Positions 441-39,810 of a stretch of 64,000 nucleotides of DNA are shown piece after piece. Where the stretch lies: the sequence record PP261279.1; one strand, given 5' to 3'. The position numbers and the translations under genes are program-made. Every line of letters begins with the position of its first letter. The first letter of the stretch is position 1. Below the pieces are notes generated by a model. It saw only the letters and a list, made by a program, of their open reading frames with translations, searched no databases and was not told where the DNA came from. This DNA is from Escherichia phage ECP2303.

Positions 441-1044
441 TTGTTACAGGTAAAACAATTACATTGTTAACTATTTCTTATCTTTCTCTTAGTCATCTAA
501 TGATTCCAGTCAGTATAGTTATGTGCAGTAAACATTAGACGACTAAAGATTTCTCTGATTATAGTAACCTATCGTGACAATTTAGGACTGTTTACGAAAA
601 ATGTTGACACTTGAGCTGATTTATGTTATGCAGTTTACACGAATAATTATTTTATGCAGGTATTGACTATTCCGTTATTCTGTGGTTGGAATAAATACTT
701 TGCAGGCTATAGAATGATGTGCGTACGTGAATTCTGAGATCTGGCGGCTATAGTTACACCCGATTTTTCACGTAGGACACGCTTTTGTGGTTGTGTAAGT
801 GTATGACTTATAAGGGTTTTTAATTGTTGACAGTATACTGAAGATGTGTATCAGGTTAAATTTTGTGCAATAGTTGCATTACGTGCATTTTTGGAAGGAA
901 AAACGTGTAAAAATGGCCCTGCTACCACACAATGAAAGATTATGCAATAGTTATTTTCCATGTATATTTGTACAGTATGTGGGATTGATGGCTAGTCAAT
1001 TATTCCACTTGCCAGGTAGGGCCGTTTATGGTAGGAGAAGAGCA

Positions 1045-1075
1045 GACAAAAAGAAAGGGGCCTTTAAGCCCCTTG
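1045..1075 (-). terminator. rho-independent terminator closing the leftward early operon
   Basis: Minus-sense hairpin aaggggcttaaaggcccctt followed by tttctttttgtc, immediately 3' of the CDS ending at 1093. Confidence 0.6.
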
Positions 1076-1092
1076 ATAATTCAGTTAAGAAA

Positions 1093-1512
1093 TTATAATG
1101 ATTCGTATATTTCAAAAATCCGATTTGCCAGGTCGTTACGGTAGCGGAATTTTTCCTCACGTTTGATCATAAGATCTTTATAGCCGTACTCTTTAAGCAC
1201 TTCATTAACTTTATGGCGGCATACTTTCATATTATCCTGCGCGTCACCAATAAATCTGTTGCTATGGTGCATGGCTTTAATTTCTTCTTCCAGGACCAGG
1301 GCAACTATGCGGACCGGATCAAGCTGATAGGCGGTAACATCCATGCGGCATTGTAAACGGCTTTTTACGTCTGCCACCGGATATACTGCAACCTCTTCCC
1401 CGTCAACATTGACAATAATTAGTTTACCATCGATTTCGAATCCTTTCGCCGCCGGACCGTGACAAAAAGCGTTATCAAAGCTATATGCCGGATTATTAGA
1501 TTTAATGTTCAT
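1093..1512 (-). CDS. hypothetical protein
   Basis: 139-aa ORF; AAGAGG RBS 7 nt upstream of ATG; last gene before the terminator. Confidence 0.7.
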   Translation of the reverse strand: MNIKSNNPAYSFDNAFCHGPAAKGFEIDGKLIIVNVDGEEVAVYPVADVKSRLQCRMDVTAYQLDPVRIVALVLEEEIKAMHHSNRFIGDAQDNMKVCRHKVNEVLKEYGYKDLMIKREEKFRYRNDLANRIFEIYESL

Positions 1513-1656
1513 GGTGTTTTTACCTCTTAGTTAATTTTCTTACAACTTCCCTTCAAAAAAGAATATAGCAAAACTGCCGATCCCTGTCAACCAGGGATAG
1601 CATAATTTTTATGTGATCAAGGGGCTTTATTGCCCCTGACCATGTAACTTGTTGTA

Positions 1657-1920
1657 TTATTTGTTGCTCATCCAGTTTTCCCAAGCTGCCTGATAATCTG
1701 CCTCACTACGGCGGATCTCTTCTTGCTCTTCAAGGCGGATCTCTTCTTCCAGGTACCCCAAGATGTCAGCCTTTTTAGTCTGGCGTAGCATCCAGTCATC
1801 TTTTTTGCGAGTGAAGATCTTATAAGCTTTCTCGCAAACCTCTTTTTTGCTACCTTTCTGGACTTCAAGAACACGATAAGCCATATATTGAACTAATTTG
1901 AGCTGATCAAGACGTTTCAT
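1657..1920 (-). CDS. hypothetical protein (charged, helical)
   Basis: 87-aa ORF; RBS aaagaggtaaacatc-ATG; preferred over the overlapping same-strand frame 1668..1874. Confidence 0.65.
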   Translation of the reverse strand: MKRLDQLKLVQYMAYRVLEVQKGSKKEVCEKAYKIFTRKKDDWMLRQTKKADILGYLEEEIRLEEQEEIRRSEADYQAAWENWMSNK

Positions 1921-1980
1921 GATGTTTACCTCTTTGTGCGGTTCTGATTAGTGGGCCTTTTGGCCCGTGTCATTATCTTA

Positions 1981-2253
1981 TTACTTATGGCGGCAGAATT
2001 CAAGCGTTTTTAATTGATAATCTTCCTCAGCCTGGAGTACGACCGCCTCGATCATTTCGTTGGCATTGTTAAAGCCATAACCTTTAGCGAACTCATCCGC
2101 GCCACCTTCGTGATCATGTTCTGCGTTCATCGCTTCCACAAAATGGAATTCCAAATTGTTGAGGTAGGGGCTTGATGTTCCGTCCTCTTTTTCGATGAGA
2201 TCCCAAATAGCATTAAAACGTGATTCGACTTCTTGATTAATCCAGCTTGACAT
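1981..2253 (-). CDS. hypothetical protein
   Basis: 90-aa ORF; RBS ggagagagg upstream of ATG. Confidence 0.7.
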   Translation of the reverse strand: MSSWINQEVESRFNAIWDLIEKEDGTSSPYLNNLEFHFVEAMNAEHDHEGGADEFAKGYGFNNANEMIEAVVLQAEEDYQLKTLEFCRHK

Positions 2254-2470
2254 AGTGTTTTCCTCTCTCCTGGTTGTTGTGTGGGCACTTTTGCCCCTTC
2301 AAGATAAATGTTACCTCACCCCATGGCAGATGTCAACGGTTTTTATAGTTCTTATATGACAGGCAGGCCCGGTGATTGTCTCCCCCTGTTCCCAAGTGCC
2401 GCCCGTTTAATAAGAATAGCAAAAGGGGCCGAACAAGTCAACCCCAAAATCAGTACCAAAACACTTTTAT

Positions 2471-2782
2471 TTATACGGTCCGATCATTGGCCTTTGTCCA
2501 GGACCTGGCGATCCGTTTCCCGGTCACCTGGAACGGAGGCTGCATTGTGTGTAATGAGTCCAGAGTAAGGGAGGACCGTTTACGGCGTATCTTCAGGATC
2601 GCTAACGTATTGTCCATCTCACGGCCAGGTCCTGGGCGGTATGGTGTGCCTCCAGCGTTAAGGTTGATGATCTCATGTATTGAGATCCGGCGTTGTTTTG
2701 CTTCCGCATCTTTGAAGATAGCCAGCGGAGGCGCTATGCGTTGCCGATACCAATCTAAAACGGTTGGCGTAATAGCGATCAT
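2471..2782 (-). CDS. hypothetical protein
   Basis: 103-aa ORF; weak RBS; start overlaps the next gene's stop; lies downstream of a promoter-like and motif-bearing intergenic region. Confidence 0.4.
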   Translation of the reverse strand: MIAITPTVLDWYRQRIAPPLAIFKDAEAKQRRISIHEIINLNAGGTPYRPGPGREMDNTLAILKIRRKRSSLTLDSLHTMQPPFQVTGKRIARSWTKANDRTV

Positions 2783-2970
2783 ATTTTACCCCCTATGTAG
2801 TCCGGTCGGTTTTTCTCTGTCATACGCTTAAGCAATTCTTGCATGTTGCTTATGGCTTGTAGTGTATCCTCTTCAAGGGATGAATCAAGATAATCAGGAT
2901 CATTCTTCACCTTGCAATGATTATGATAACGCAGTACCGCCAGTACTTTTTTAACTTCTTCCGCTGTCAT
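2779..2970 (-). CDS. hypothetical protein
   Basis: 63-aa ORF; 4-nt overlap with the downstream gene, typical translational coupling. Confidence 0.55.
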   Translation of the reverse strand: MTAEEVKKVLAVLRYHNHCKVKNDPDYLDSSLEEDTLQAISNMQELLKRMTEKNRPDYIGGKI

Positions 2971-2978
2971 TATCGCGC

Positions 2979-3113
2979 CTAAAACAATGAGTTAATATAT
3001 AACACCAGATCGCTGACTACCAGGACAACATTAATCAGCACATACCTAACCATAAAGGGAAAGATCGCCAACATTGCCGCCACGATCCCCATGGTAATAA
3101 TTATCTTTCTCAT
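2979..3113 (-). CDS. small hydrophobic membrane peptide (44 aa)
   Basis: Hand translation MRKIIITMGIVAAMLAIFPFMVRYVLINVVLVVSDLVLYINSLF; below the ORF-track size cut-off; fills the gap between flanking genes. Confidence 0.4.
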   Translation of the reverse strand: MRKIIITMGIVAAMLAIFPFMVRYVLINVVLVVSDLVLYINSLF

Positions 3114-3115
3114 GG

Positions 3116-3400
3116 TTAACGGTTCACGTAAGTTTTCCCGTTCACGGTTATGGGCAGATCCTCCAGGTCTGGATCTTCCTTAAGGTCGCGAGCAAGCTCA
3201 CCGCACCGGATACCCTCGAATCCGTAGTACTCTGTTGTGCCGTCCTTAAAAGTTTTAGCGGCAAGGCATAAGCGATAAGTAACCCCGATTTGATTGACGG
3301 CATGAATATCCGTTAGATTAACCTCTTTTGCCAGCTCTTTAGCCATTACAGGCGCATTAAGTCCAACAACCAGGGTAACCACTGCGATCATCTTTTTCAT
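3116..3400 (-). CDS. secreted/periplasmic small protein with N-terminal signal peptide
   Basis: MKKMIAVVTLVVGLNAPVMA signal-peptide-like N-terminus; RBS aagagg. Confidence 0.65.
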   Translation of the reverse strand: MKKMIAVVTLVVGLNAPVMAKELAKEVNLTDIHAVNQIGVTYRLCLAAKTFKDGTTEYYGFEGIRCGELARDLKEDPDLEDLPITVNGKTYVNR

Positions 3401-3491
3401 TGTGTCTATCCTCTTTCTGCTACGTTTAAGGCGGCGGTAACCGCCTGTTTATGCTTTGTTGGTTAATTTTCAGGTATCTGTATAAATTAAA

Positions 3492-3707
3492 CTATGCTGT
3501 ACGCTCAACTATAACAACGGTTTGGGGGATCTCCCCTTCCACCACTAGTAAGGCCTTTTTCTGCGTGATAGATATCTTTACCCGTTGCAGCGTGGCGGTG
3601 AAGTCTTTCATTTCGTCACGCGGTGTTTTAGTGCAGTACCAGATCTCAGGCTTGCCGATCTGTAAGTTGCGTAAAAATTCCGTTTTGCCTGTTTTGTTAG
3701 TGATCAT
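3492..3707 (-). CDS. hypothetical protein
   Basis: 71-aa ORF; RBS gtgagg upstream. Confidence 0.6.
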   Translation of the reverse strand: MITNKTGKTEFLRNLQIGKPEIWYCTKTPRDEMKDFTATLQRVKISITQKKALLVVEGEIPQTVVIVERTA

Positions 3708-3716
3708 TTGCCAACC

Positions 3717-3821
3717 TCACCCGATACCGTTGGAAGACAAGATCATATTAGACATGGTTGCAATCAGGCCAATACCCAGGGCAATAACCAAGATCACTGC
3801 ATCGATTAATTTCTGTTTCAT
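3717..3821 (-). CDS. small membrane peptide (34 aa)
   Basis: Hand translation MKQKLIDAVILVIALGIGLIATMSNMILSSNGIG; stop overlaps the RBS of the next gene. Confidence 0.35.
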   Translation of the reverse strand: MKQKLIDAVILVIALGIGLIATMSNMILSSNGIG

Positions 3822-3898
3822 GGTGTTTATTCTCTTCTGTTAGTAACCTTATTCATGGGGCCGCTACCACAGCCCCAGGGTAAGGCAGCTATGTGCTT

Positions 3899-4144
3899 TT
3901 AGTGTTTCATTCCAACCATCGCGGCACGGATCGCCGTAGTGCTGTACTTGAAGCCGTCCGGGGTCTTATCTTGTCCGGTTAGCTCCAGAAAAAGCATCAT
4001 ATCCCGCGCCGCATCATTACGATTAGCATTGGCGTTAATAAAGCCTTGGGCCAACCGGTACAATGACTCATCGTTATTAATCCAAAGGCTTACATTCCAA
4101 TGAGTTTTGTTTTTGTAACCGTTATAACCTTTATTGCTTTTCAT
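3899..4144 (-). CDS. hypothetical protein
   Basis: ORF-track frame 3899..4225; start moved to the internal ATG (MKSNKG...) preceded by aagaggtaaacacc, the RBS context shared by neighbouring genes. Confidence 0.6.
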   Translation of the reverse strand: MKSNKGYNGYKNKTHWNVSLWINNDESLYRLAQGFINANANRNDAARDMMLFLELTGQDKTPDGFKYSTTAIRAAMVGMKH

Positions 4145-4231
4145 GGTGTTTACCTCTTCTTTGTTCCAGGTGGCGGACCATTCCACCGCCTTATGTATTA
4201 TGCTTTGTAAGATGGCTGTTGTCAAACTATT

Positions 4232-4411
4232 TTAACGATAATCATCGTACGCTTTATTAACCTGGCGGATATAACATTCAAAAGCCAGATCAATAGATTT
4301 ATATTCACGGATATACTCACCATAGGAAACCACATACATTTCTATAGCTTCCTCATATGCGAGGAGAATAGAATCTAAGCCTACGATCTCAGTCTTTGCA
4401 ATAATAGCCAT
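4232..4411 (-). CDS. hypothetical small protein (59 aa)
   Basis: Hand translation MAIIAKTEIVGLDSILLAYEEAIEMYVV...; RBS aagaggataaaaatc-ATG. Confidence 0.45.
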   Translation of the reverse strand: MAIIAKTEIVGLDSILLAYEEAIEMYVVSYGEYIREYKSIDLAFECYIRQVNKAYDDYR

Positions 4412-4486
4412 GATTTTTATCCTCTTTGTAGTTGGTGGGGTTCGTTGCCCCCTTTGATTTATATATTACAGTCTTATATGGTCATG

Positions 4487-4720
4487 TCAACTATTTTCAA
4501 AAAATTTTTCTGCTGTGATATTCTTCCCGGTAGGGTTCGCTACTTTCAAAATTTTATCATGCACTGGACGCCCAAAAGAATAAGCGCCGTACACAGTAAA
4601 CCAATAATCGCCGTCAGGTTGTACTATTACTGCCGCATATGGTACGCCTTTTTCGTTTTTGCTGACAAAATAGATCACGTTGCCATTAATAGCCTCGGCG
4701 CGTTTAATTTGTTCCATCAT
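4487..4720 (-). CDS. hypothetical protein
   Basis: 77-aa ORF with RBS. Confidence 0.65.
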   Translation of the reverse strand: MMEQIKRAEAINGNVIYFVSKNEKGVPYAAVIVQPDGDYWFTVYGAYSFGRPVHDKILKVANPTGKNITAEKFFENS

Positions 4721-4775
4721 GATGATTTGCCTCTCTTTATTTTCATAATTGGGGGCCTTTTCGGCCCCGCCAGGT

Positions 4776-5060
4776 TTATTTATTGATAGCGTGCAGCGGG
4801 AAAGCTACGCCAGGTTGATAAATAACCTTTACAACCTCATCAGGACAAAAGAAGTTGCAGAACTCACCGCAATAGGCCTCATCCTCTTTCAACTCTTCAT
4901 CAACATACTCAAAAAAGTAGTCGATGCTTGGATAATCCTGGCCGTGATTATAGTCAACCATCGTTAATAATAACTCTTGATCATTCCGTAGGATGTGCAT
5001 ACCCGCTTTTAAGTATTTTGCTTCCATTTCTACTACATTGCCAGCGGTAACAATAGCCAT
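4776..5060 (-). CDS. hypothetical protein
   Basis: 94-aa ORF; RBS aggag. Confidence 0.65.
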   Translation of the reverse strand: MAIVTAGNVVEMEAKYLKAGMHILRNDQELLLTMVDYNHGQDYPSIDYFFEYVDEELKEDEAYCGEFCNFFCPDEVVKVIYQPGVAFPLHAINK

Positions 5061-5189
5061 GATTTTAACTCCTATCTATCTGGTCAACGATTGGGGGCCT
5101 CCCCCTCGACAACTCTTATTATCCATATTGTCGGGAATGATGCAAGTACTTCTTTAAAAATTTTTTAAGCGCCCCGTATGCCGTTGTAA

Positions 5190-5228
5190 CGCCAAAATAA
5201 TAAAGGCCATGCAACCGCATGGCCTTTA
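5190..5228 (-). terminator. rho-independent terminator
   Basis: Minus-sense hairpin aaaggccatgcggttgcatggccttt followed by attatttt, downstream of the CDS ending at 5263. Confidence 0.5.
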
Positions 5229-5262
5229 TGTGATTATATTGCTGTAGGCCCTGCCTGGGGCC

Positions 5263-5613
5263 TTATTTTGCATTCTTGCCTGTATTGCCGCCACGGTACC
5301 AGCGTTTGCGGTGAAAATGGTAATAATCACCCTCGGCATTAAACATCAGATGATTTTCAATAACCAGCTTACGAAGGTGGGCCGGATCTTGTTCCATTCT
5401 TGCCAGATTCCGGCGGCTGTTACGTAAGCGTATAAATTCCATATTCAGGCCGTTGATTGCAGCATGGATGTCAAAGTAACCACCTTTGAGACGTTCACGC
5501 ATGGCGTTAAGCTCAACACAATATACAGATTTCTCACAAATCAAGGTATTAGCTAGGGCGCGGACCTGGGCAAGGGGGTTAAGCTCATTAAGGTAATATA
5601 GTTTGACTTTCAT
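5263..5613 (-). CDS. hypothetical protein
   Basis: 116-aa ORF. Confidence 0.65.
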   Translation of the reverse strand: MKVKLYYLNELNPLAQVRALANTLICEKSVYCVELNAMRERLKGGYFDIHAAINGLNMEFIRLRNSRRNLARMEQDPAHLRKLVIENHLMFNAEGDYYHFHRKRWYRGGNTGKNAK

Positions 5614-5630
5614 AAAATCGCCTGCTGAAA

Positions 5631-5930
5631 TTAGTTTGAGAAAACATCGTTCACAATAGCGATCACAATGCCGCCCACCTTGTCACGGTCAGCAATGCAC
5701 AAATCACCATGGATCATGCGGTAGTCTGGATGATCTTTCACAGAATAGTCAATAAGTGTTTTCTTGTCGTCCAGCTTCGTAACTTCCATTCTCATAACGA
5801 TATGAGAATCATCAAAGGCATTATTCCGAAAAGTCATAGCCTGACCGCCAGGGCACCCGGTGATCTCAACTTCCACGCCGTCTACGATCTGACCATCAAA
5901 GAAATAGAGATTATTGGCGGGTATAAACAT
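5631..5930 (-). CDS. hypothetical protein
   Basis: ORF-track frame 5631..5951; start placed at the ATG (MFIPANN...) with 8-nt spacing from aaggag. Confidence 0.6.
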   Translation of the reverse strand: MFIPANNLYFFDGQIVDGVEVEITGCPGGQAMTFRNNAFDDSHIVMRMEVTKLDDKKTLIDYSVKDHPDYRMIHGDLCIADRDKVGGIVIAIVNDVFSN

Positions 5931-5974
5931 GATCATTGCTCCTTTTTGCACTGATTATTTTAACAGGGTTTAAA

Positions 5975-6020
5975 TTTACTTTATTGATGGCCCTGGAGTC
6001 AAGGCCATCTAAAAATAAAT
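5975..6020. repeat. 45-bp conserved intergenic repeat, copy 1
   Basis: tttactttattgatggccctggagtcaaggccatctaaaaataaa, near-identical at 9692 and 10313; contains hairpin gatggcc...ggccatc; directly 3' of a minus-strand stop. Confidence 0.7.
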
Positions 6021-6021
6021 T

Positions 6022-6222
6022 TTACAGATCTACAATCTCTTTAATTCGTTTTACTGCTGCCTCAGCGCCTTGAGGGTAGAAATTATGATAACCAATCACG
6101 CGGGTAATACTGATCGCCGCTTGGTGGTCCTCGTAGTCGCCTTTGAATATTTCTTGACCATCAACCAGCACAGCAATTTTTTCTTCTTTTTTGAAGTTAA
6201 TAACGCGGATATTGTTGCTCAT
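6022..6222 (-). CDS. hypothetical protein
   Basis: 66-aa ORF; RBS aaaaggagaaacaaa-ATG. Confidence 0.65.
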   Translation of the reverse strand: MSNNIRVINFKKEEKIAVLVDGQEIFKGDYEDHQAAISITRVIGYHNFYPQGAEAAVKRIKEIVDL

Positions 6223-6367
6223 TTTGTTTCTCCTTTTGGAACTTTGTCTGTGTGGTGGGGAGTGTCTCCCCGTTGATTGTTATTATCCATATTCTGGACC
6301 GGATTGCAACACTCAGGAAGAAAAATTTTTTGAAAAAAGTTAGGCCCCCAGGGATCGGGGGCCGTTA

Positions 6368-6487
6368 TCAGTTGCTTACAGCGATAAAATACATCCCTAC
6401 GCCTAACAATATTTCAAGGGCGATGATCTCAAGCCATACCATAACACGGCGCGCCTTATCGGTGCGGGGCTTATCCTTGGTTGTCAT
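6368..6487 (-). CDS. small membrane peptide (39 aa)
   Basis: Hand translation MTTKDKPRTDKARRVMVWLEIIALEILLGVGMYFIAVSN; RBS gggggag. Confidence 0.35.
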   Translation of the reverse strand: MTTKDKPRTDKARRVMVWLEIIALEILLGVGMYFIAVSN

Positions 6488-6596
6488 CGTCTCCCCCTTC
6501 CCTCCTGCTAGCAGTTACGTGGTTTGCAATGGCCCCCAGTAGTCCGATCACGACACACATCGCAAGAAAAATTATCTCTCCCGTTGTTCGATCCAT
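6471..6596 (-). CDS. small membrane peptide (41 aa), alternative to 6508..6729
   Basis: MDRTTGEIIFLAMCVVIGLLGAIANHV... with RBS gagagg; overlaps 6508..6729 in another frame, so only one is likely real. Confidence 0.3.
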   Translation of the reverse strand: MDRTTGEIIFLAMCVVIGLLGAIANHVTASRREGGDDDNQG

Positions 6597-6729
6597 TGTT
6601 ATAAAACCTCTCAAGATCAGGCCTAAAAGTAAATCTTTCGTTATTGAATCCGTCACGCCAGGCGGCTGGCTTCAAATCTTCACTAAATGGATTAATTAAC
6701 GTGGCATTATTTAAACGGTTGGCCCACAT
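6508..6729 (-). CDS. hypothetical protein, alternative to 6471..6596
   Basis: MWANRLNNATLINPF...; RBS gagagg; C-terminal part is low complexity. Confidence 0.25.
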   Translation of the reverse strand: MWANRLNNATLINPFSEDLKPAAWRDGFNNERFTFRPDLERFYNNGSNNGRDNFSCDVCRDRTTGGHCKPRNC

Positions 6730-7078
6730 ATTTTCTATTCCTCTCAAATAAGCGATCCGCCTCAGTTAAACAAATCTCATGGGCGTGATCTCTGGTTTTA
6801 GCTTCATCGAAAACCTGTTGTGCAAGGCTGCAACGTAGGGAGACTGGGAGATCACTATAATAGGCGTTGACAAACGTTTGAGCGTCGTACAGGTCTGAAA
6901 ATACTTTACCCTTTCTATTATTCCCCTTGTCAACAATTGCAAGGATAACCAATACAATAGTTGCAACCACCCCCAGGAAAATAGATATAATAAACCATAA
7001 AAAGGCGGATCTCCCCATCTTGCCAGCGATCCAGGCGTTAAACAAGGCAACCAATATAGCCAAAATAATAAATTCCAT
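6707..7078 (-). CDS. membrane protein (two predicted TM helices)
   Basis: ORF-track frame 6707..7111; start moved to MEFIILAILVALF... preceded by aaagagg; hydrophobic N-terminal half. Confidence 0.6.
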   Translation of the reverse strand: MEFIILAILVALFNAWIAGKMGRSAFLWFIISIFLGVVATIVLVILAIVDKGNNRKGKVFSDLYDAQTFVNAYYSDLPVSLRCSLAQQVFDEAKTRDHAHEICLTEADRLFERNRKYVGQPFK

Positions 7079-7142
7079 TCTATGTACCTCTTTTACAGTT
7101 CTGATCAACAATAAGGCGGCAAATATGCCGCCTGTTACCTGA

Positions 7143-7523
7143 TTAAAAATTATCGCCGTAAATCTTTCCGCTTTCTACCCATACCACCACGCGAGGCATA
7201 CTATCCCACACGTCTTGTTTTAGATTGAGCGCGTGCAATTCTTCGGTGGTGCTCATACCGGGCACGGGCTGATTGTATACTGCAAAACGACCACCCGCAT
7301 AATCATAGGCCAGGGTTAAATCACACTGGATCATCTTTTTGATCATGGCATTAAGCATGGCGTTAGCCGCATACTGATCACGTTTTAAAGGCAACTCTTT
7401 GATTAGTTTGCGATAGTTTTCGATATGGTCGCACACTGTTTCACGCGGAAGATCTTTCATATCTTCACGGAATGTAACCAGGTTAAACATAACGGTGTCA
7501 ATAGCCTTGGTAGTGGTTTTCAT
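7143..7523 (-). CDS. hypothetical protein
   Basis: 126-aa ORF; RBS aaagaggataaaatc-ATG. Confidence 0.65.
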   Translation of the reverse strand: MKTTTKAIDTVMFNLVTFREDMKDLPRETVCDHIENYRKLIKELPLKRDQYAANAMLNAMIKKMIQCDLTLAYDYAGGRFAVYNQPVPGMSTTEELHALNLKQDVWDSMPRVVVWVESGKIYGDNF

Positions 7524-7612
7524 GATTTTATCCTCTTTGTTTTGTGTGGGGCAAGACGTTTGCCCCTTGAGTTTTTAATATAGCAGGTTTTTAGATTATT
7601 GCAACACTTTAT

Positions 7613-8236
7613 TTATGAAAAACTCATCTCCCCATATTCATCCACATCAAACCGCCAATCATTGGCCTCGATAAGGCCGATCAAGTATTCTGCGGTGAAC
7701 TGTTCTAGATAGGCCTCCTCCAGGTCTACGTAAACCTTGCGGGATAGCTCCCGTACCGTCTCGGTGATCAGTTCTTCCAGGTCTTCCACTTTGTTTTCTT
7801 GTTTGGCGGTCAGATCTAGCCAAGTGGTATCAATGTACCCGCTTACAGTGTTTTCATGGCTGTAATGGCTGTACTTGTCGCGTTCAACACTGGCTGATAA
7901 CTCGCCATCGTGCATTGTGCCGAACAAGTGACGAATTGATCTGAACTTGGTCAGGGCCTTGACTTTACGCAAAAATTTTTCTAAATCCACGTTTTCAGCA
8001 CTGATTGACGCGCCGTCACCCTGGCACCAAAAGCCGGACCAATGTACTTCGGTATCTTCAAGGCCGTACTCTGGAAAAACTTGTTCTTTATAGTATTCAA
8101 TTACATTTTCTGCGAAAAAATCATCCCCGCTGCGTTCTTCTCTTTCGCGGACCATTTCAATGGCTTTTTCTTTTTGTTCGTCGGTTAGCACGTCGAAAGA
8201 TAAATTGTAACCTGTGGTAATGTTAACGGTGGTCAT
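7613..8236 (-). CDS. hypothetical acidic protein
   Basis: 207-aa ORF with RBS. Confidence 0.7.
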   Translation of the reverse strand: MTTVNITTGYNLSFDVLTDEQKEKAIEMVREREERSGDDFFAENVIEYYKEQVFPEYGLEDTEVHWSGFWCQGDGASISAENVDLEKFLRKVKALTKFRSIRHLFGTMHDGELSASVERDKYSHYSHENTVSGYIDTTWLDLTAKQENKVEDLEELITETVRELSRKVYVDLEEAYLEQFTAEYLIGLIEANDWRFDVDEYGEMSFS

Positions 8237-8310
8237 GATATTTTCTCCTGTTTTCTTTGTTAGTGGCGGGAAGTTTTCCCGCCTGTGTGTTTAATTATAC
8301 TTATTGAGAT

Positions 8311-8571
8311 TTACTTGTCAACACTATTTTTTAAATTATTGTGGCGCAAAATGTTTAAAATCTCCTCAACGTCATCAACACGGCGGCAATTTTTAAACGC
8401 TACCAATTGCCCCATGATTTTAATCACTGGGCGGCCTTGCCAGTGACCCTGGAGAAAGCGCGCCTTGACTTTATCGGTGGAACTATCACGCCACCAAATA
8501 GCCTTGTTGTTGCAGTAGTAAAAATTATTCAGGATAACATCAACTTTATCAAAATTTTTTAATTTACGCAT
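8311..8571 (-). CDS. hypothetical protein
   Basis: 86-aa ORF; first gene downstream of the promoter at 8604-8631. Confidence 0.65.
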   Translation of the reverse strand: MRKLKNFDKVDVILNNFYYCNNKAIWWRDSSTDKVKARFLQGHWQGRPVIKIMGQLVAFKNCRRVDDVEEILNILRHNNLKNSVDK

Positions 8572-8603
8572 GGCGTTTACTCCTTTCTCTCTTTGATGTG
8601 GTT

Positions 8604-8631
8604 AGTATAGCTAACCTGTTGACGATGTCAA
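8604..8631 (-). promoter_or_regulatory. sigma70-like promoter
   Basis: Minus-sense TTGACA-16 nt-TATACT; overlaps palindrome ttgacgatgtcaa. Confidence 0.55.
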
Positions 8632-8749
8632 TGATATTTTTAACGCCATAAAACGGCCCTGGGCGATGTTTTCAGGTTAAGGGGGGCGATTGCATAGGTG
8701 GGGGCCTTTTTGGCGCTTACAGGGCCAACCAGGGGCGCTATTAGTAGGA

Positions 8750-8782
8750 TAGAAATAAAAAGCCCCGCACAATGGCGGGGCG
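8750..8782 (-). terminator. rho-independent terminator
   Basis: Minus-sense hairpin gccccgccattgtgcggggc followed by tttttatttc. Confidence 0.6.
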
Positions 8783-8789
8783 TTGGTTG

Positions 8790-8987
8790 TTATTTGTCTT
8801 TATGGCGATATCGTTCTGCCTGTCGTTCACGTTCCAAAAGTAGGCCGGGCAATTTACGATCATAATGATTGCGCCAGATCTTCCCAAACCTTTTTGGCTT
8901 ATTCAGTTTATTGTTACGCTGGCGGCGTTCTGGCAGCTCTTCGGAATCATGAGGGCGCTTTACAATTTTCTCGAAATTAATTTTCAT
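8790..8987 (-). CDS. hypothetical basic protein
   Basis: ORF-track frame 8790..9011; start placed at MKINFEK... with RBS aagggggg; ends just before the terminator. Confidence 0.45.
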   Translation of the reverse strand: MKINFEKIVKRPHDSEELPERRQRNNKLNKPKRFGKIWRNHYDRKLPGLLLERERQAERYRHKDK

Positions 8988-9330
8988 ATCTTCCCCCCTT
9001 GCTAACTTCAATATTGGCCTGAATAGCCCGGATGCGGCGCTTTATAACTTCCTGATCTGTGTGGTCGTATCCCCAAAAGTCTACAATTTTTGCGCCACCC
9101 GCTTCCAGGCGGTATAGTGTTTCCTGCATTTTGTAAGCCGGGATCGGTCGCGGTGTTACTTGGTCGCCTTCTTTATTTTTATACTTTATAATATAATCTT
9201 CGTTATCGTTGAATGCCCAAAATGGATATTCTGCAAGGGCGGTACTTCCTCTTTCCTTTTTATCCTGGATCTTATTTACAATTAAAGCCGTAGCAATAGC
9301 GCCAATAATAAAACTAGCCCCGCTAATCAT
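8977..9330 (-). CDS. membrane-anchored protein (N-terminal TM segment)
   Basis: MISGASFIIGAIATALIV... hydrophobic N-terminus; RBS aaaggagaaag. Confidence 0.65.
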   Translation of the reverse strand: MISGASFIIGAIATALIVNKIQDKKERGSTALAEYPFWAFNDNEDYIIKYKNKEGDQVTPRPIPAYKMQETLYRLEAGGAKIVDFWGYDHTDQEVIKRRIRAIQANIEVSKGGRYEN

Positions 9331-9406
9331 GTGTACTTTCTCCTTTCATGGTGTTAATAAATTATCTTTATAGATGGCCCTGCAACCAGGACCACCGAAA
9401 AAATAA

Positions 9407-9652
9407 CTATTTCACAATGCCTACAAAACAGATCCCGCCTTCACCTATGTAAGCAATATCGGTAACTTTATAATTTGTCAAGATCTGTTTATTTAGTTCA
9501 TTAATAAAATCGGTCATTGCGTTGGTGTAGTTGTCTTCCATATCTAAGGCATAATCCCAGGCGTAAGCCTTTTTACGTCCGAAGCCTTTTACCATGATAC
9601 GGGCGCTTTTGGTGTTGGTGGGCGCATAATATTTGGTGATTAGTGCTGCCAT
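9407..9652 (-). CDS. hypothetical protein
   Basis: 81-aa ORF; RBS gaggag. Confidence 0.6.
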   Translation of the reverse strand: MAALITKYYAPTNTKSARIMVKGFGRKKAYAWDYALDMEDNYTNAMTDFINELNKQILTNYKVTDIAYIGEGGICFVGIVK

Positions 9653-9691
9653 GGTTTTAACTCCTCATTAGTTCAGTGTTAACAGTGTAAA

Positions 9692-9741
9692 GTTTACTTT
9701 ATTGATGGCCCTGGAGTCAAGGCCATCTAAAAATAAATTTA
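9692..9741. repeat. 45-bp conserved intergenic repeat, copy 2
   Basis: Same sequence as 5975-6020; directly 3' of the gene ending at 9739. Confidence 0.7.
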
Positions 9742-10080
9742 CTCGTTTTCTTCCAGCTCTGAAAGCTCTTCTTTCACTTCTTCGAGCTCTGTCTGCAATT
9801 CTTGGTACTCTTCATCGTCCTCAATATCCAGGCTGTCGATGTAGTCGCTAAATCCGCAGCGGTAAGCGATAGGATCTAGCTCCTTGAGGATACGCGACGG
9901 AAGAAAAGAAATGTTTCCGATCATAATTTCGCCGTAGATCTCGTCTAACCATTCATCATAGTTTTCGTCGTACTTGTCCTCGTCGATTTCAAAGTTATCG
10001 ATCTTGTTCTCAAGGTCTGCGATCTGTTTTTTCAGCGCGGCGATCTGCATAGCTTTTTCTGCGGCGGTCATAGTAGTCAT
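9739..10080 (-). CDS. highly acidic coiled-coil protein (DNA-mimic candidate)
   Basis: 113 aa, rich in D/E with heptad-like segments (ELEEVKEELSELEENE). Confidence 0.65.
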   Translation of the reverse strand: MTTMTAAEKAMQIAALKKQIADLENKIDNFEIDEDKYDENYDEWLDEIYGEIMIGNISFLPSRILKELDPIAYRCGFSDYIDSLDIEDDEEYQELQTELEEVKEELSELEENE

Positions 10081-10159
10081 GGTGTTTTCTCCTTTTGTGT
10101 GTTCTGGGAAGTTTTCCCGTTTACGTGTTTAAGTATACCGATTTGGGTTAGCTTGTCAA

Positions 10160-10279
10160 TTAAAAATTTAAGAAAAATTTTGCAAAACTGTTGGCGCTAC
10201 TCATTAACATTTGCGCCAGGATGTAACCGACAACGCAAACGATAATAGTTACCTTTGTGTATTGGCGTGTAGTGCTCAT
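10160..10279 (-). CDS. small membrane peptide (39 aa)
   Basis: Hand translation MSTTRQYTKVTIIVCVVGYILAQMLMSSANSFAKFFLNF; RBS aaggggg. Confidence 0.35.
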   Translation of the reverse strand: MSTTRQYTKVTIIVCVVGYILAQMLMSSANSFAKFFLNF

Positions 10280-10312
10280 CTTAAAGCCCCCTTTTTCGCT
10301 TAGTTGAGACTA

Positions 10313-10358
10313 GTTTACTTTATTGATGGCCCTGGAGTCAAGGCCATCTAAAAATAAA
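10313..10358. repeat. 45-bp conserved intergenic repeat, copy 3
   Basis: Same sequence as 5975-6020; directly 3' of the gene ending at 10360. Confidence 0.7.
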
Positions 10359-10359
10359 C

Positions 10360-10764
10360 TTAGTAAGTTTTCAGTACTTTACCGTCCAACCTGTCAAGCT
10401 GGATCTCGATAGCTGCAGAAAACCTATTGTACACCACGTCGCCCATAGAATCCAACCAATCTATGACGTTATACACCTGCTCTTTGTTCTTACAGGTCCG
10501 GATCCGTTTCATGATGTAAGCCGGATCAATATTGGTACTCTCGTCGGTGTTCCCCTGTACCTGGTTTGCCGTATTAGTTACATCTTTAATGGCCTTTACC
10601 ACCACCTGGAAGGGCTTTAAGGTACCTTTTGCGTTCATCTCACGCGCTTTTGCGGCGCGGTTGTTATATGTTACACAACGGCGGCAAATGTTGATCAAAT
10701 GCATGTCAATAATTTTTTCATCGTTTGCCAGTTCATTCATGATGCGGCGTACGTTCTTATTCAT
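10360..10764 (-). CDS. hypothetical protein
   Basis: ORF-track frame 10360..10863; start moved to MNKNVRR... with RBS aaaggaaaaaagatc-ATG. Confidence 0.6.
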   Translation of the reverse strand: MNKNVRRIMNELANDEKIIDMHLINICRRCVTYNNRAAKAREMNAKGTLKPFQVVVKAIKDVTNTANQVQGNTDESTNIDPAYIMKRIRTCKNKEQVYNVIDWLDSMGDVVYNRFSAAIEIQLDRLDGKVLKTY

Positions 10765-10847
10765 GATCTTTTTTCCTTTGTGTTGGCGGGAAACATTCCC
10801 GCCTTTTGTGCCCAGTTTACTTGAATTTTGCAGCGTGTCAACAATTT

Positions 10848-11246
10848 TTATTCGTGGGCGCATGTTACAATGTGCTTTTTATAGCCCAGGCGGTCAGCAA
10901 GTGCCGACAAAAACTCTTCTTCGTAGATCCAGCCGTCGGCAGTGATCCCCATAGCATTTAATGCGCTCTCAAGTGCTGCGTTGGCTTTATCATAACCGTG
11001 ACCGCTCGCCTTGCCTCCAGTATAGCCGTACTTATTGTTCTTGTTGTCGTGTATCCAAAAAACGCAGTAGTGAGTGTTCCCGCTGGCGGCGGCATAATAC
11101 CGGATCTCAGCTACTTCGTGCAAATTATTGTCATCGTCCAGGCCCACCAGATTATAAGCCTTGTAAAATCCACGATCACGGCGGCAGTTCTTGACATCAG
11201 AAAAAGAAAAGTCCGCATTATCAAAATTAAAGGTAGTGGTTTTCAT
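10848..11246 (-). CDS. hypothetical protein
   Basis: 132-aa ORF. Confidence 0.65.
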   Translation of the reverse strand: MKTTTFNFDNADFSFSDVKNCRRDRGFYKAYNLVGLDDDNNLHEVAEIRYYAAASGNTHYCVFWIHDNKNNKYGYTGGKASGHGYDKANAALESALNAMGITADGWIYEEEFLSALADRLGYKKHIVTCAHE

Positions 11247-11310
11247 GATTTTATCCTCTTAGTGTCTTTTGTGCTTTTAGTGTATTTGGTGTCGGACTGT
11301 ATGTCAATAC

Positions 11311-11508
11311 TTATTTTTTATTAAACCAGTGGTTGATCTGGCCTTTTGTCAGGGCGCAACGATTAAGCTGTTGCCGAGTATAGCTCTGACCGCGACGGAA
11401 TTTATAAAGGCCTTGCCCGTTGTTGATGGTTACATCCACCCGGCAAACCATTTGATCGGTGACCACCTGGCGAGTGTTGCGACGTACTTTGATTCCGTAG
11501 GCGTTCAT
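11311..11508 (-). CDS. hypothetical basic protein
   Basis: 65-aa ORF; RBS agagaggataaaaaatc-ATG. Confidence 0.6.
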   Translation of the reverse strand: MNAYGIKVRRNTRQVVTDQMVCRVDVTINNGQGLYKFRRGQSYTRQQLNRCALTKGQINHWFNKK

Positions 11509-11561
11509 GATTTTTTATCCTCTCTGTTAATTGGTGTGGTGTTGTTCACCTTGCGAGGATA

Positions 11562-11590
11562 AGAATAACAATAACTGTACGAGCTGTCAA
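11562..11590 (-). promoter_or_regulatory. sigma70-like promoter
   Basis: Minus-sense TTGACA-17 nt-TATTCT upstream of the gene starting at 11508. Confidence 0.35.
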
Positions 11591-11770
11591 CCATTAGTTA
11601 GAATTATTTTTTTTGGGCAGAATTCTCCAGCCGCCGCCCCTACCAGGTTAACCATCGTTTTTTCGTACTCTTCTTTATGTTCCAACGCTCCCGCCATAGC
11701 CTTTTCAACCAGGGCGATAGCCTCAGCGTCATTAATCGCTACATTTCCAGGGGATCAAATTACCTTTCAT
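11588..11770 (-). CDS. possible small gene with frameshift or non-ATG start
   Basis: Strong RBS gaggagg then ATG opens a 12-codon frame (MKGNLIPWKCSD); the +1 frame continues as protein-like ...NDAEAIALVEKAMAGALEHKEEYEKTMVNLVGAAAGEFCPKKIILTNG. Confidence 0.2.
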
Positions 11771-11960
11771 TTTTGTACCTCCTCTTCAATTGTTACCTGC
11801 CCTATAGCATAGGCCTACCAGGTTTGCAAGCTTTCACTCTCTCCTACCTGGTCAGTCAGGTCCTGCCAGGTTGGCCCCGCCAGGTTGCAACGGTTAGCGC
11901 ATCAGGTTAGAATTTTTTTGAAAAGTGTTGACAGCGGCCCCGCCAGGTGGCACAATATAC
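11640..11960. repeat. dispersed CCAGGTT iterons plus two AGGTTAGAATT-T-run elements
   Basis: ccaggtt at ~11643, 11818, 11866, 11880 (caggtt 11903, ccaggtg 11945); aggttagaatt with T-run at ~11596 and ~11905. Confidence 0.45.
11928..11958 (+). promoter_or_regulatory. candidate sigma70-like promoter, plus strand
   Basis: TTGACA-17 nt-CACAAT; followed by the GAGACAA-CACCGGGG motif. Confidence 0.35.
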
Positions 11961-11989
11961 CTATCGGAAGGACGGCAGGCACCGGTGAC

Positions 11990-12009
11990 GGGGGAGACAA
12001 CCACCGGGG
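11990..12009 (+). promoter_or_regulatory. conserved motif GGGGGAGACAACCACCGGGG
   Basis: Close copies at 12126-12144 (same strand), 2368-2386 (opposite strand) and 351-370 (degenerate). Confidence 0.45.
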
Positions 12010-12071
12010 ATGGGCGCTGCATAAAATGAGAACGGTTATCATTATCATTTAAAAATTTATGCAAAAAATCC

Positions 12072-12102
12072 TTGCTTTCTTTGTCCTGTGTGATACTATA
12101 AT
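12072..12102 (+). promoter_or_regulatory. candidate extended -10 sigma70 promoter, plus strand
   Basis: TTGCTT-16 nt-TACTAT(AAT) with TG one nucleotide upstream of the -10. Confidence 0.4.
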
Positions 12103-12125
12103 AACAAGCCGGGGCAACAGGGGCC

Positions 12126-12144
12126 GGGAGACAATCACCGGGGG
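12126..12144 (+). promoter_or_regulatory. conserved motif GGGAGACAATCACCGGGGG
   Basis: Second tandem copy, ~35 nt downstream of the 12072 promoter, followed by gagaatgattatcatt as in copy 1. Confidence 0.45.
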
Positions 12145-12217
12145 TGCCCGTTATTCTGCAAACGAGAATGATTATCATTCAAAATTCTAAATGAGAACTT
12201 TTCGCATTTCATAAATT

Positions 12218-12231
12218 TAGTTAGCATGCTA
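12218..12231. promoter_or_regulatory. perfect 12-bp palindrome TTAGCATGCTAA (operator-like)
   Basis: Read directly in non-coding DNA. Confidence 0.3.
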
Positions 12232-12304
12232 ATTACCTACCGTGACAATTCTATATAAAATAATACCTCCTTAAATATTTCCATATACAAATTTTAAAAA
12301 TCCA

Positions 12305-27727: not shown

Positions 27728-29071
27728 TTACTCTAAATCTTCTTCTGAGTCAAGCCTATCTTTCACAACTAAGTTCTGGGCAAGTTTGTAATAACGAAAG
27801 CCCCCACCACCTTGCCAGTTTACAGATTTAGAAATACCACTTTGATCTTCACCATCGATCACTTTTTGCAAGCGTGGAATAATATGGGTATGACAATGAT
27901 CTCCTAGCTCAACCGAGATCCAACGTCTTTTCATCTTGTGAGCTACAGCAGCAGTAGTTCCCGAACCGCCGAATGAATCCAATACTAAATCTCCTTCTCG
28001 CGTACACATTTCTAAAATCCGCTTCAAAAGCGCTTCAGGTTTTTTTCCATTTTTGAAACTAACGCCCCCTTCATTTGCTATTCCATTCCAACTAATGTCA
28101 GTCCAAACATCAGTTATTAGTTCAGCAGGCTGCATCTCACCGTCAATTTCCAAAAGCCTATTGGAATAAAAGACCATTTGCCTACCATTTGCGATATAAA
28201 AGCCTTCGACATCCTCATTTGGATGTACATAAACCTTATCCCTATCTTTCTTTGACTTCTCGATAGTTTCTTTTCTCTTTATTTTGGCACCACCGCCAAT
28301 TGCAACGGATTGAAATACACGTTCTGCATTATCAATTGCAAATTGTGCTAATTCATAATCAAATGTATCAGGCAGTTTTTTCTTGGCTTCTTTTGTATCT
28401 TTATAGCCATTGGCCTTTGCAAACGCATCGGCAATACCGCACCACGTCCAACTTTTATAATGGTCATCTGGGTTTAATAGATATTTGTTATATCCCGTAT
28501 CATACTCTTTAGGTATATAGATTTTGTTAAGTGGTTTCTTGGTACGATCTTTTGCATATACAAGCAAAAAGTTTGCTGTGGAGAAAACTGTAGTTCCTGT
28601 TGCTTTAAAGCCTGAAGGGCAATTTGTAGTCATCGATATGGTATTTAACTGATTTGCACGACCAAAAATCTCGTCCATCAAGACTTTTAAATAAGCCATT
28701 TCGCAGTCATCTAAGTGAACGAATATCACTCCATCATCGCTTAGCAGATTACGAATTATTTCTAATCTGTCCCGCATTAAGCCCAGCCAAATGGAGTGCT
28801 CCAGGCTATCATCGTAGTGCTCAAAATCCCTTCCGGTATTGAATGGCGGGTCTATGTAAACACACTTCACTTTGCCTGCATACTCTTGCTCTAGTGCCTT
28901 CAATGCCAGTAAGTTATCTCCAAAAATCAGTTTATTATCAAAAATATCGTTTTCGGTCACCTTTTTACTGGCGTGATAAGACTTGCTCGAATCTTCTAAC
29001 AAAATGTGAGGCTCTAGCTTTTTGCGCTCGTTCTTACCTATCCAGGTAAGTTCTAATTTGGTTTTACTCAT
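27728..29071 (-). CDS. DNA methyltransferase, beta-class (N6-adenine or N4-cytosine), Type III Mod-like orphan
   Basis: 447 aa; motif IV VYIDPPFNTG before motif I LVLDSFGGSGTTA (beta-class order); N-terminal LIFGDNLLALKAL. Confidence 0.85.
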   Translation of the reverse strand: MSKTKLELTWIGKNERKKLEPHILLEDSSKSYHASKKVTENDIFDNKLIFGDNLLALKALEQEYAGKVKCVYIDPPFNTGRDFEHYDDSLEHSIWLGLMRDRLEIIRNLLSDDGVIFVHLDDCEMAYLKVLMDEIFGRANQLNTISMTTNCPSGFKATGTTVFSTANFLLVYAKDRTKKPLNKIYIPKEYDTGYNKYLLNPDDHYKSWTWCGIADAFAKANGYKDTKEAKKKLPDTFDYELAQFAIDNAERVFQSVAIGGGAKIKRKETIEKSKKDRDKVYVHPNEDVEGFYIANGRQMVFYSNRLLEIDGEMQPAELITDVWTDISWNGIANEGGVSFKNGKKPEALLKRILEMCTREGDLVLDSFGGSGTTAAVAHKMKRRWISVELGDHCHTHIIPRLQKVIDGEDQSGISKSVNWQGGGGFRYYKLAQNLVVKDRLDSEEDLE

Positions 29072-29132
29072 CGTTTGGTGCTCTCCTTAATTTTTGTGGG
29101 GAGGAGTGCCTCCCCTTTATACTCACATCTTA

Positions 29133-29474
29133 CTACTCAAGGTCTTCAGAGTCAAGCTCAAAAAGAATCAAACTGTGCATGCCTGCAGAGAGATCAACAC
29201 ACCCTGCAACAATAAGGGTTTGATAGTAAGGTTCAGCACCCTCAATATCTTCGTTAAAATCCACAACAAGGTAGTCACCTTTGTTAAAGGTGTATTTGTC
29301 CGATGTAAACGCAAAACCTGCCCAGTCACCTACTGCAGGATCTTTATCAGTCACCTTTGTTAGCAGTAGATCTTTTTCACGAGATCTTTTAGTAAAATCG
29401 TGAATCACAACATCCTTCTCTTCAGGAGTCGGATTGCCACACACGTAGTTAACGATATTTCTCCACAAACTCAT
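29133..29474 (-). CDS. hypothetical protein
   Basis: 113-aa ORF; 4-nt overlap with the Dda-like gene. Confidence 0.6.
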   Translation of the reverse strand: MSLWRNIVNYVCGNPTPEEKDVVIHDFTKRSREKDLLLTKVTDKDPAVGDWAGFAFTSDKYTFNKGDYLVVDFNEDIEGAEPYYQTLIVAGCVDLSAGMHSLILFELDSEDLE

Positions 29475-39777: not shown

Positions 39778-39810
39778 TGACAGGGGCCATTGGCCCCTTC
39801 TGGAGTTTTA

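Follow-up and report, generated by a model that had tools for sequence, protein, structure and literature searches.

Promoter-linked stem-loops ahead of the early genes of an rV5-like Escherichia phage: candidate expression cassettes with a possible role at the mRNA 5′ end

What is a small GC-rich hairpin doing in front of one early phage gene after another? We took up this question for a 64,000-nt stretch of Escherichia phage ECP2303 (PP261279.1; called the window below, with positions on the plus strand), in which a first-pass annotation had noticed stem-loops ahead of the ribosome-binding sites of what it regarded as an early operon. Most of these hairpins have a sigma-70 promoter in front of them, its −10 box about 10 nt away, and the units resemble the promoter-early stem-loop (PeSL) cassettes described in the T4-type phages RB49/phi1, PST/T4, and nt-1/KVP40 (Arbiol et al. 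2010, PMC2839356; Comeau et al. 2014, PMC4122927). The interpretation we favor, and to which we would give about an even chance, is that they are PeSL-like early expression cassettes whose hairpin mainly caps and insulates the 5′ end of the mRNA and whose repetition drives gene shuffling.

The early region is that of an rV5-like Vequintavirus. Bases 1000–11000 are 100% identical to Escherichia phage ECP2309 (PP464953.1, Vequintavirus, rV5-like) and 91%–96% identical to ∼120 further Vequintavirus records. The minus strand carries every gene between 1093 and 38658. Genes at 1–11 kb are short and all annotated as hypothetical; 13 hairpin units cluster among them at 1.9–10.8 kb, a plastic region in which close relatives differ in gene content. 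A covariance-model scan of the whole window against Rfam returned zero families at gathering score.

Anatomy and enrichment of the hairpin units

Every hairpin listed in the first-pass annotation exists, with several coordinates displaced by 1–7 nt; corrected spans are given in Table 1, together with five extra hairpins of the same type in the same range and one outside it. The hairpins are well above chance. A set of 32 leaders was defined as up to 70 nt upstream of the minus-strand ATGs at 1000–20750, and 15 of them held a hairpin of −8 kcal/mol or lower, compared with 1.41 ± 1.25 (maximum 5) in 100 dinucleotide shuffles; the enrichment over shuffled sequence that the first-pass annotation had named as a check is thus borne out. 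Perfect GC hairpins are eight times as dense in intergenic as in coding DNA.

The 14 units share a simple anatomy. Hairpins are 13–24 nt long (−4 to −16 kcal/mol), with stems mostly of 5–8 bp and, in two units, ∼10 pairs with mismatches. The G-rich arm is 5′ and the C-rich arm 3′ in 14 out of 14. Stem sequence and length vary within this genome, and the loops of different hairpins are unrelated. The 3′ end of the hairpin lies 20–35 nt from the ATG, and the spacer between them is A-rich and poor in G and U (A/C/G/T 54/21/13/12%, compared with 31/20/24/26% for the region). It had been described as CACA-rich; a mild excess of ACA is what stands of this description (29 seen, 20 ± 3.8 expected, p = 0.016), and no specific CACA motif.

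Ten of the 14 hairpins start 5–13 nt (mode 10) past the −10 box of a promoter that matches 8–12 of the 12 sigma-70 consensus positions (eight promoters score 9–12, and two score 8). The 8236 cassette (cassettes are named here after the higher coordinate of their gene) has a promoter that matches all 12 and reads, from 8321 to 8265, TTGACA-16-TATAAT-TAAACACACA-GGCGGGAAAACTTCCCGCC. An A/T-rich tract upstream of the −35 box was read by eye, without statistics, an example being AATAATTTAAAAAATAGTG before the TTGACA at 8321. Five of the promoters were independently predicted in the rV5 genome paper (Table 1), which printed just 7 nt past the −10 box and whose table of 20 terminators includes none of these hairpins. 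Since most units have their own promoter, the region is a string of separately promoted units, and the single early operon that had been assumed must be abandoned. The plus-strand hairpin that had been grouped with the cassettes is also of another kind, directly abutting its Shine-Dalgarno (SD) sequence and having neither an A-rich leader nor a promoter.

Transcription usually starts 6–9 nt past the −10 box. With such a start, the predicted number of unpaired 5′ nucleotides is 0–4 (seven in the 10080 unit). In six of nine predicted leader folds, the RNA beyond the 5′ hairpin stays open past the SD and AUG; in the other three, the SD region is partly paired. Folding z-scores were −2.2 to −3.9 in five of the nine and weak (−0.3 to −1.5) in four. 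The SD (AAAGAGG or AGGAG) stands 6–9 nt before the ATG. Two SD-to-ATG modules each recur nearly verbatim three times: ACAAAGAGGATAAAATCATG at 4409–4432, 7521–7544, and 11244–11266, and a AAGAGGTAAACACCATG-like module at 1918–1940, 4142–4164, and 10078–10100. Sharing of modules thus extends to the ribosome site of the cassette. One leader departs from the open form of the others: ahead of gene 6022–6222 (6222–6245), a small second hairpin is predicted, in which the SD GGAG pairs with a UUCC that lies upstream.

Table 1. Hairpin units, class II repeats, and related features of the window. Leader is the distance in nucleotides between hairpin and ATG; z is the leader-fold score; P numbers are promoters predicted for phage rV5; origin tells hairpins of the first-pass annotation (span corrected) from those added here.
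Feature	Span (strand)	Promoter	−10 to hairpin (nt)	Hairpin	Hairpin span	Leader (nt)	z	Origin	Remarks
Cassette, gene 1657-1920	1918..2003 (-)	TTGAAT(1998-2003)-17-TAAGAT(1975-1980), weak	8	GGGCCAAAAGGCCC	1953-1966	32		first pass	AAAGAGG SD, ATG 1920
Cassette, gene 1981-2253	2251..2336 (-)	TTGACA(2331-2336)-17-TAACAT(2308-2313)	10	GGGGCAAAAGTGCCC	2283-2297	29		first pass	ATG 2253; P168; U-tract terminator 2425-2445 upstream, same intergenic region
Hairpin leader, gene 3116-3400	3398..3446 (-)	none recognizable		AGGCGGTTACCGCCGCCT	3429-3446	28		added	
Hairpin leader, gene 3717-3821	3819..3877 (-)	not found		TGGGGCTGTGGTAGCGGCCCCA	3856-3877	34		added	
Cassette, gene 3899-4144	4142..4225 (-)	TTGACA(4220-4225)-17-CATAAT(4197-4202)	5	AGGCGGTGGAATGGTCCGCCACCT	4168-4191	23	−2.2	added	
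Cassette, gene 4232-4411	4409..4490 (-)	TTGACA(4485-4490)-16-TAATAT(4463-4468)	10	GGGGGCAACGAACCCC	4437-4452	25		added	P174
Hairpin leader, gene 4487-4720	4718..4768 (-)	none		GGGGCCGAAAAGGCCCC	4752-4768	31		first pass	hairpin starts 12 nt past upstream stop codon
Cassette, gene 4776-5060	5058..5145 (-)	TTGCAT(5140-5145), −10 GATAAT/TAATAA (5116-5123)	10-12	GGGGGAGGCCCCC	5093-5105	32		added	
Cassette, gene 6022-6222	6220..6309 (-)	TTGCAA(6304-6309), −10 GATAAT/TAATAA (6280-6287)	8-10	GGGGAGACACTCCCC	6257-6271	34	−3.1	first pass	terminator 6343-6363 upstream, same intergenic region
Cassette, gene 7143-7523	7521..7604 (-)	TTGCAA(7599-7604)-16-TATATT(7577-7582)	10	GGGGCAAACGTCTTGCCCC	7548-7566	24	−2.8	first pass	leader ACACAAAACAAAGAGGATAAAATC
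Cassette, gene 7613-8236	8234..8321 (-)	TTGACA(8316-8321)-16-TATAAT(8294-8299)	10	GGCGGGAAAACTTCCCGCC	8265-8283	28	−3.9	first pass	P185
Cassette, gene 9739-10080	10078..10159 (-)	TTGACA(10154-10159)-16-TATACT(10132-10137)	13	GGGAAAACTTCCC	10106-10118	25		first pass	P192
Cassette, gene 10360-10764	10762..10841 (-)	TTGACA(10836-10841)-16-TAAACT(10814-10819)	10	GGCGGGAATGTTTCCCGCC	10785-10803	20	−3.4	first pass	P194
Same-type cassette beyond the noted range, gene 27728-29071	29069..29155 (-)	TTGACT(29150-29155)-17-TAAGAT(29127-29132)	11	GGGGAGGCACTCCTCCCC	29098-29115	26		added	
Class II repeat, 51 nt	5972..6022 (-)	TTGACT-18-TAAACT type		GATGGCCTTGACTCCAGGGCCATC					hairpin overlaps −35 box
Class II copy	9359-9409								73% identical
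Class II copy	9690-9740								
Class II copy	10311-10361								
Plain intercistronic hairpin	39783..39797 (+)			GGGGCCATTGGCCCC	39783-39797			first pass	between Srd-like gene and next gene; SD is GGAG

Change, exchange, and spread of the cassettes

Within the genus, we compared 12 related loci (L001 and L003–L013). The hairpin segment is a hot spot of change across them, yet it almost always refolds. In orthologue alignments, 61% of loop columns are variable, compared with 19% of stem columns and 23%–29% of flanking columns, making loops about three times as variable as stems. The 49 distinct natural variants, which share a phylogeny and are not independent, have a mean folding energy of −11.1 kcal/mol, compared with −6.8 kcal/mol in random mutants with equal numbers of edits (Wilcoxon p = 5e-10). 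The fold is thus held better than random mutation permits, and stems that differ between copies and between phages stay complementary; both findings support the earlier proposal of a selected structure.

Individual hairpins illustrate the point. Orthologues of the 5060 hairpin form a series from G-C through G.U (L006, L008) to A-U (L013); in the 7523 hairpin both arms grow in step, from 7 to 8 to 9 bp. The loop of the 1953–1966 hairpin changes from AAAA to GGGA in L001 and L007 with the stem kept, and the 4437–4452 hairpin is lost in one relative (L003). Three hairpins are inverted as a whole between strains (7548–7566 in most relatives, 3429–3446 in L004, and 10785–10803 in L008 and L009), leaving the stem the same and the loop reverse-complemented (for instance, ACGTC vs. 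GACGT). Whole inversion of three hairpins indicates that the loop sequence is not read, and it suggests that template-switch inversion is frequent at these palindromes.

Some public sequences are irregular at these sites. L005 (V18) has a run of 17 G in place of the 5060 hairpin, and in L010 (typing phage 14) an N-run assembly gap ends exactly inside the hairpin upstream of the 8236 orthologue; a breakpoint inside hairpin 8265–8283 of typing phage 14 was rejected on account of this gap. These GC hairpins evidently disturb both sequencing and assembly, and variants in public records should be read with care at such sites.

Where relatives have gained or lost genes, the joints fall inside the cassettes and chimeric elements are left behind, as seen in a few cases checked by hand (automatic chaining of BLAST pieces was too coarse for breakpoints). 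In Gotham (L003), the gene that intervenes between the 4144-type promoter-hairpin cassette and the 3821 gene is absent, and cassette and gene are joined directly; the same phage has an extra gene inside the 1920 leader, with a duplicated leader segment left behind. The 8236 and 10080 cassettes are paralogues (74% identical). Beside the cassettes described above there is a second class, a 51-nt repeat with four copies in the window (class II). Phage 241Ecol014PP (L011) is without gene 9407–9652 and carries a single chimeric class II repeat, with the crossover just past the hairpin. In the annotation of phage Murica, two class II copies are labeled "terminator"; no U-tract follows them.

The same layout extends beyond the genus. 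We counted promoters (≥9/12) carrying such a hairpin and compared the counts with shuffle expectation, in a loose scan that also admits some hits that are not cassette-type (two in phi92, which look like chance, and a few in L014 and L015). A hairpin was found at 12 of 26 promoters in phi92 (1.65 expected; 10 are cassette-type), six of 13 in PVP-SE1 (1.25 expected), nine of 16 in the Phapecoctavirus-like L014 (1.1 expected), and nine of 17 in L015 (1.25 expected). In the window, the counts were eight of 57 on the gene strand (3.55 expected) and three of 15 on the antisense strand serving as control (1.05 expected). This is only about twofold over expectation on the gene strand, so the case for the window rests more on leader enrichment and the anatomy of the units. 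Spacing and polarity recur across genera: about 14 units of phi92 follow the scheme TTGACA-N16/17-TAnnnT, ∼11 nt, GGCGGGAAnnnTTCCCGCC, and all cassette-type scan hairpins of phi92 and PVP-SE1 have the G-rich arm first. In L014 and L015, the homologue of gene 7143–7523 has another hairpin in the corresponding position, and the Av-05 homologue has a promoter and no hairpin; only five relatives of this gene were found in IMG/VR. In PVP-SE1, the small-gene region does not lie around the polymerase, and synteny differs from the window. A blastn search with one cassette (8236) matched Vequintavirus only, with no match outside the genus, T4-type phages included.

Candidate functions of the hairpin

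How might such a layout work? In the mechanism we propose, each cassette would run from an A/T-rich tract through a near-consensus sigma-70 promoter to a stem-loop ∼10 nt past the −10 box (5–8 bp, occasionally longer, G-rich arm first), then through a leader of 10–20 nt, A-rich and presumably unstructured, to a strong SD and the ATG. Host RNA polymerase would start 6–9 nt past the −10 box, a position we infer, making the hairpin the first structure of each early mRNA. As a cap-like 5′-terminal stem-loop it could slow 5′-end-dependent decay (by RppH, then RNase E), and by stopping the 5′ end from pairing with the leader it could keep the ribosome site open whatever gene is joined. In read-through transcripts, and at the three copies that have no promoter, the hairpin could shield the downstream segment after upstream cleavage. 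Because the cassettes are alike, they also serve as recombination joints by which small genes are added, deleted, or swapped between related phages.

Several points weigh against this mechanism. The hairpins at 3429, 3856, and 4752 have no recognizable promoter and the promoter before 1953 is weak, while strong promoters at 11246, 14101, and 1512 in the same region have no hairpin. Literature searches yielded no start-site, half-life, or transcriptome data for rV5-like phages, and the start position is a predicted one. Covariation, a check named in the first-pass annotation, is weak when counted strictly column by column, with 51 one-sided broken cells and no double compensatory cell. We judged the column-wise count unreliable, in part because G/C-run indels and whole-hairpin inversions upset the alignment, and refolding against random mutants replaced it. 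Template-switch repair of palindromes could, however, mimic selection for pairing, and sequencing errors in G/C runs swell the apparent variability. Finally, a role in stability alone would not account for the strict G-first polarity.

Four other accounts place the function in termination, RNA processing, protein binding, or DNA alone, and a fifth looks to the opposite strand. The original PeSL proposal, that the stem-loop is an attenuator or terminator damping upstream transcription so that each gene mainly uses its own promoter, draws on the finding by the PeSL authors that lacZ expression fell as much with one RB49/phi1 stem-loop as with rrnB T1; the G-run-loop-C-run stems here match the RB49 type, and three of the hairpins lie between genes without a promoter. 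We nevertheless consider it unlikely. On the gene strand, the 8 nt 3′ of each hairpin hold 0–3 T and the flank is A-rich instead of a U-tract, most stems have just 5–8 bp, and a terminator scan of the minus strand flagged none of the cassette hairpins, whereas the genuine terminators of the region carry U-tracts and, as read from their sequences, have mixed polarity. The intergenic regions before 2253, 5060, and 6222 each have such a terminator ahead of the promoter and still carry the hairpin farther on, so an attenuating hairpin would be redundant; nor would attenuation need a fixed 10-nt distance from the −10 box. The intercistronic location and the three promoterless copies could equally be cited for the RNase processing site or translational-coupling element of the first-pass annotation, and the A-rich single strand beside the stem could admit RNase E (direct entry of this enzyme via single-stranded regions is reportedly the subject of one paper, PMC4191395). 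This proposal we hold to be very improbable. RNase III needs about two helical turns (∼20 bp or more), and it was dropped as a candidate on stem length, there being no stem beyond 5–8 bp other than the two of ∼10 pairs with mismatches. A conserved cleavage motif is absent, the leader is U-poor (12% T), most units begin their own transcript, and gaps of 55–90 nt with an SD left free by the hairpin misfit coupling. That the hairpins end antisense transcripts seems extremely improbable: the opposite strand has T-rich runs after them, and six score as terminator-like on the plus strand (8265, 10785, 7548, 6253, 3429, and 4437), but this T-richness is the complement of the A-rich stretch between −10 box and hairpin, no plus-strand promoter or gene is evident within 1100–38700, and a bidirectional terminator already stands at 1055–1074.

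Polarity and position bear on the remaining two. A site for a phage or host protein, either in RNA (antitermination of the boxB/N type, or selective mRNA protection) or as a DNA operator near +10 that shuts early promoters, would suit the +1 to +20 position, which is typical of operators, and the strict G-first polarity seen in 14 out of 14 units here and in the cassette-type hairpins of phi92 and PVP-SE1. Many hairpin copies in phi92-like phages are nearly identical (GGCGGGAAATGGTTTCCCGCC), and some loops are A-rich (GAAAA, AAAA), as is the lambda boxB loop. Against this, stems in this genome differ in sequence and length, the unrelated loops vary more than any other part and tolerate being flipped by inversion, and gene conversion between cassettes can explain the phi92 copies. 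We regard a protein site as quite improbable, and its boxB/N-like form was dropped because loops are unrelated and invertible. Just as improbable, in our view, is that the hairpins have no RNA function and are DNA-level features of mobile or recombining cassettes (exchange hot spots or template-switched palindromes) that owe their position to common descent. Chimeric cassettes at gene indels, the paralogy of some cassettes (the class II repeats and the 8236/10080 pair), and whole-hairpin inversion with symmetric arm growth, typical of palindrome mutation, are what such features would leave. But from cassette to cassette in this genome the stretch between −10 box and hairpin changes in sequence and the 10-nt distance does not, suggesting a constraint tied to the transcription start and not mere common descent; the layout persists across genera without cassette similarity detectable by blastn; and polarity is G-first relative to the gene, which argues for a strand-specific constraint, hence one at the level of RNA or transcription.

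One extension of the capping mechanism involves a gene outside the cluster. Gene 38734–39777 (+) has an "HNH endonuclease" family as its top PHROG match (E = 1e-110), with further PHROG matches to "decoy of host sigma70" (E = 4e-15) and "Srd anti-sigma factor" (E = 5e-9) and no Pfam hit. It corresponds to rV5 gp11, a probable Srd homologue according to the rV5 paper. Existing annotations call it "anti-termination protein" in ECP2309 and "HNH endonuclease" in PVP-SE1. The matches lend the first of these names no support and leave the function unsettled. In phage T4, Srd boosts the action of RNase E on host mRNA (Qi et al. 2015, as cited in PMC4980113). The 5′ hairpin could then be a lineage-wide "self" mark, with capped, G-first phage mRNAs escaping the decay induced by an Srd-like protein while host mRNAs are destroyed. 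We think this decidedly unlikely; if true, a simple cis-acting feature would distinguish phage RNA from that of the host during takeover. A general shield from 5′-end-dependent decay would likewise offer a simple cis-acting route to favor the phage's own messages.

Phages of the rV5-like, phi92-like, and PVP-SE1-like groups are widely used in therapy and biocontrol, and nearly all genes of their early regions are of unknown function. Once the cassettes are recognized, the transcript starts of dozens of early genes can be predicted exactly, the swapping of small genes between relatives is explained, and the PeSL concept reaches beyond T4-type phages. The cassettes also offer compact, portable, strong expression modules for E. 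coli.

Genomic surroundings and comparison with known systems

Other features of the window and its relatives deserve mention. About 20 "Campylobacter phage" records are 93%–100% identical to E. coli rV5-like phages, and at least one (MG065662) is flagged UNVERIFIED; they are probably mislabeled or contaminant isolates. A gene-free stretch of ∼930 bp at 11698–12631, the "non-coding" box on the rV5 map, contains direct repeats of a GAAAACGAAAAACAGATCGAGTACT-like unit (12297–12477) and a long imperfect hairpin (12304–12341), and may be an origin or regulatory region. Positions 1–900, which hold few genes, lie just inside the ∼459-bp terminal repeat annotated in phage Gotham, and show runs of TGACAC/TTGACA-like words, plus-strand promoter-like sites (33–62 and 226–253), and paired repeats at ∼240–400. 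The DNA polymerase gene (20753–23530) is intact in the window and in two or three pieces in the relatives FV3, SophiaRose, Mangalyan, and YP-6; an HNH endonuclease is annotated at the split in three of them, which suggests mobile introns or inteins. An endonuclease VII gene is inserted in relatives at a position matching ∼16325 of the window.

Among known systems, the PeSLs are closest in design. Both have an A/T-rich tract, a near-consensus sigma-70 promoter, a G-run-loop-C-run stem-loop, an SD, and an ATG; both recur in an early region that is plastic, ahead of small genes whose function is unknown; and both leave chimeric elements at gene indels between close relatives. PeSLs mediate modular shuffling and are sorted by the place of the stem-loop into five classes, among them "downstream of −10" and "overlapping −35" (PMC2839356, PMC4122927); the window likewise has more than one positional class, "downstream of −10" plus the class II repeat as "overlapping −35". 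The lineage, in contrast, is Vequintavirinae/Stephanstirmvirinae and not T4-type, and there is no homology detectable by blastn. Given a Vequintavirus genome and an 8236 cassette that matches Vequintavirus only, we take the cassettes to be an analogue of the PeSL in another lineage, not a homologue. In the dominant class here, the hairpin is at a fixed distance of ∼10 nt from the −10 box and within the predicted transcript; in RB49 PeSLs, it lies mostly between the boxes or over the −10 box. With no U-tract in the cassettes, the terminator role put forward for PeSLs is a poor fit here.

With respect to function, the closest analogues would be the 5′-terminal stem-loops of ompA, papA, and T7 gene 10. 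The T7 gene 10 leader hairpin, familiar from pET vectors, is a 5′-terminal stem-loop that stabilizes mRNA. References in one review (PMC3997798) report that 5′ stem-loops protect E. coli mRNAs (Emory 1992; Bouvet & Belasco 1992; Arnold 1998) and, for ompA and papA, that the protection is from 5′-end-dependent decay by RNase E and RppH. As in the ompA and papA 5′ untranslated regions, a short GC stem here would lie within a few nucleotides of the predicted 5′ end, followed by an open leader and a strong SD; those are single proven cases, however, whereas here the design, read from sequence, is repeated family-wide on a dozen sigma-70 early genes. Lambda nut boxB and other phage antitermination hairpins are likewise small, promoter-proximal, and of 5–8 bp, some with A-rich loops, but boxB combines a conserved loop read by N with an adjacent boxA, in contrast to the unrelated, hypervariable, and invertible loops found here. 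RNase III sites of the T7 early region are also structured RNA between early genes; those hairpins measure ∼20 bp or more, have internal loops, and belong to one long transcript, unlike these perfect or near-perfect stems of 5–8 bp (up to ∼10) beside individual promoters. Literature searches for this hairpin layout in rV5-like phages found no description, the promoters having already been predicted for rV5. The parts and the logic of the cassette are known already; what appears to be new is the hairpin layout in the rV5-like lineage.

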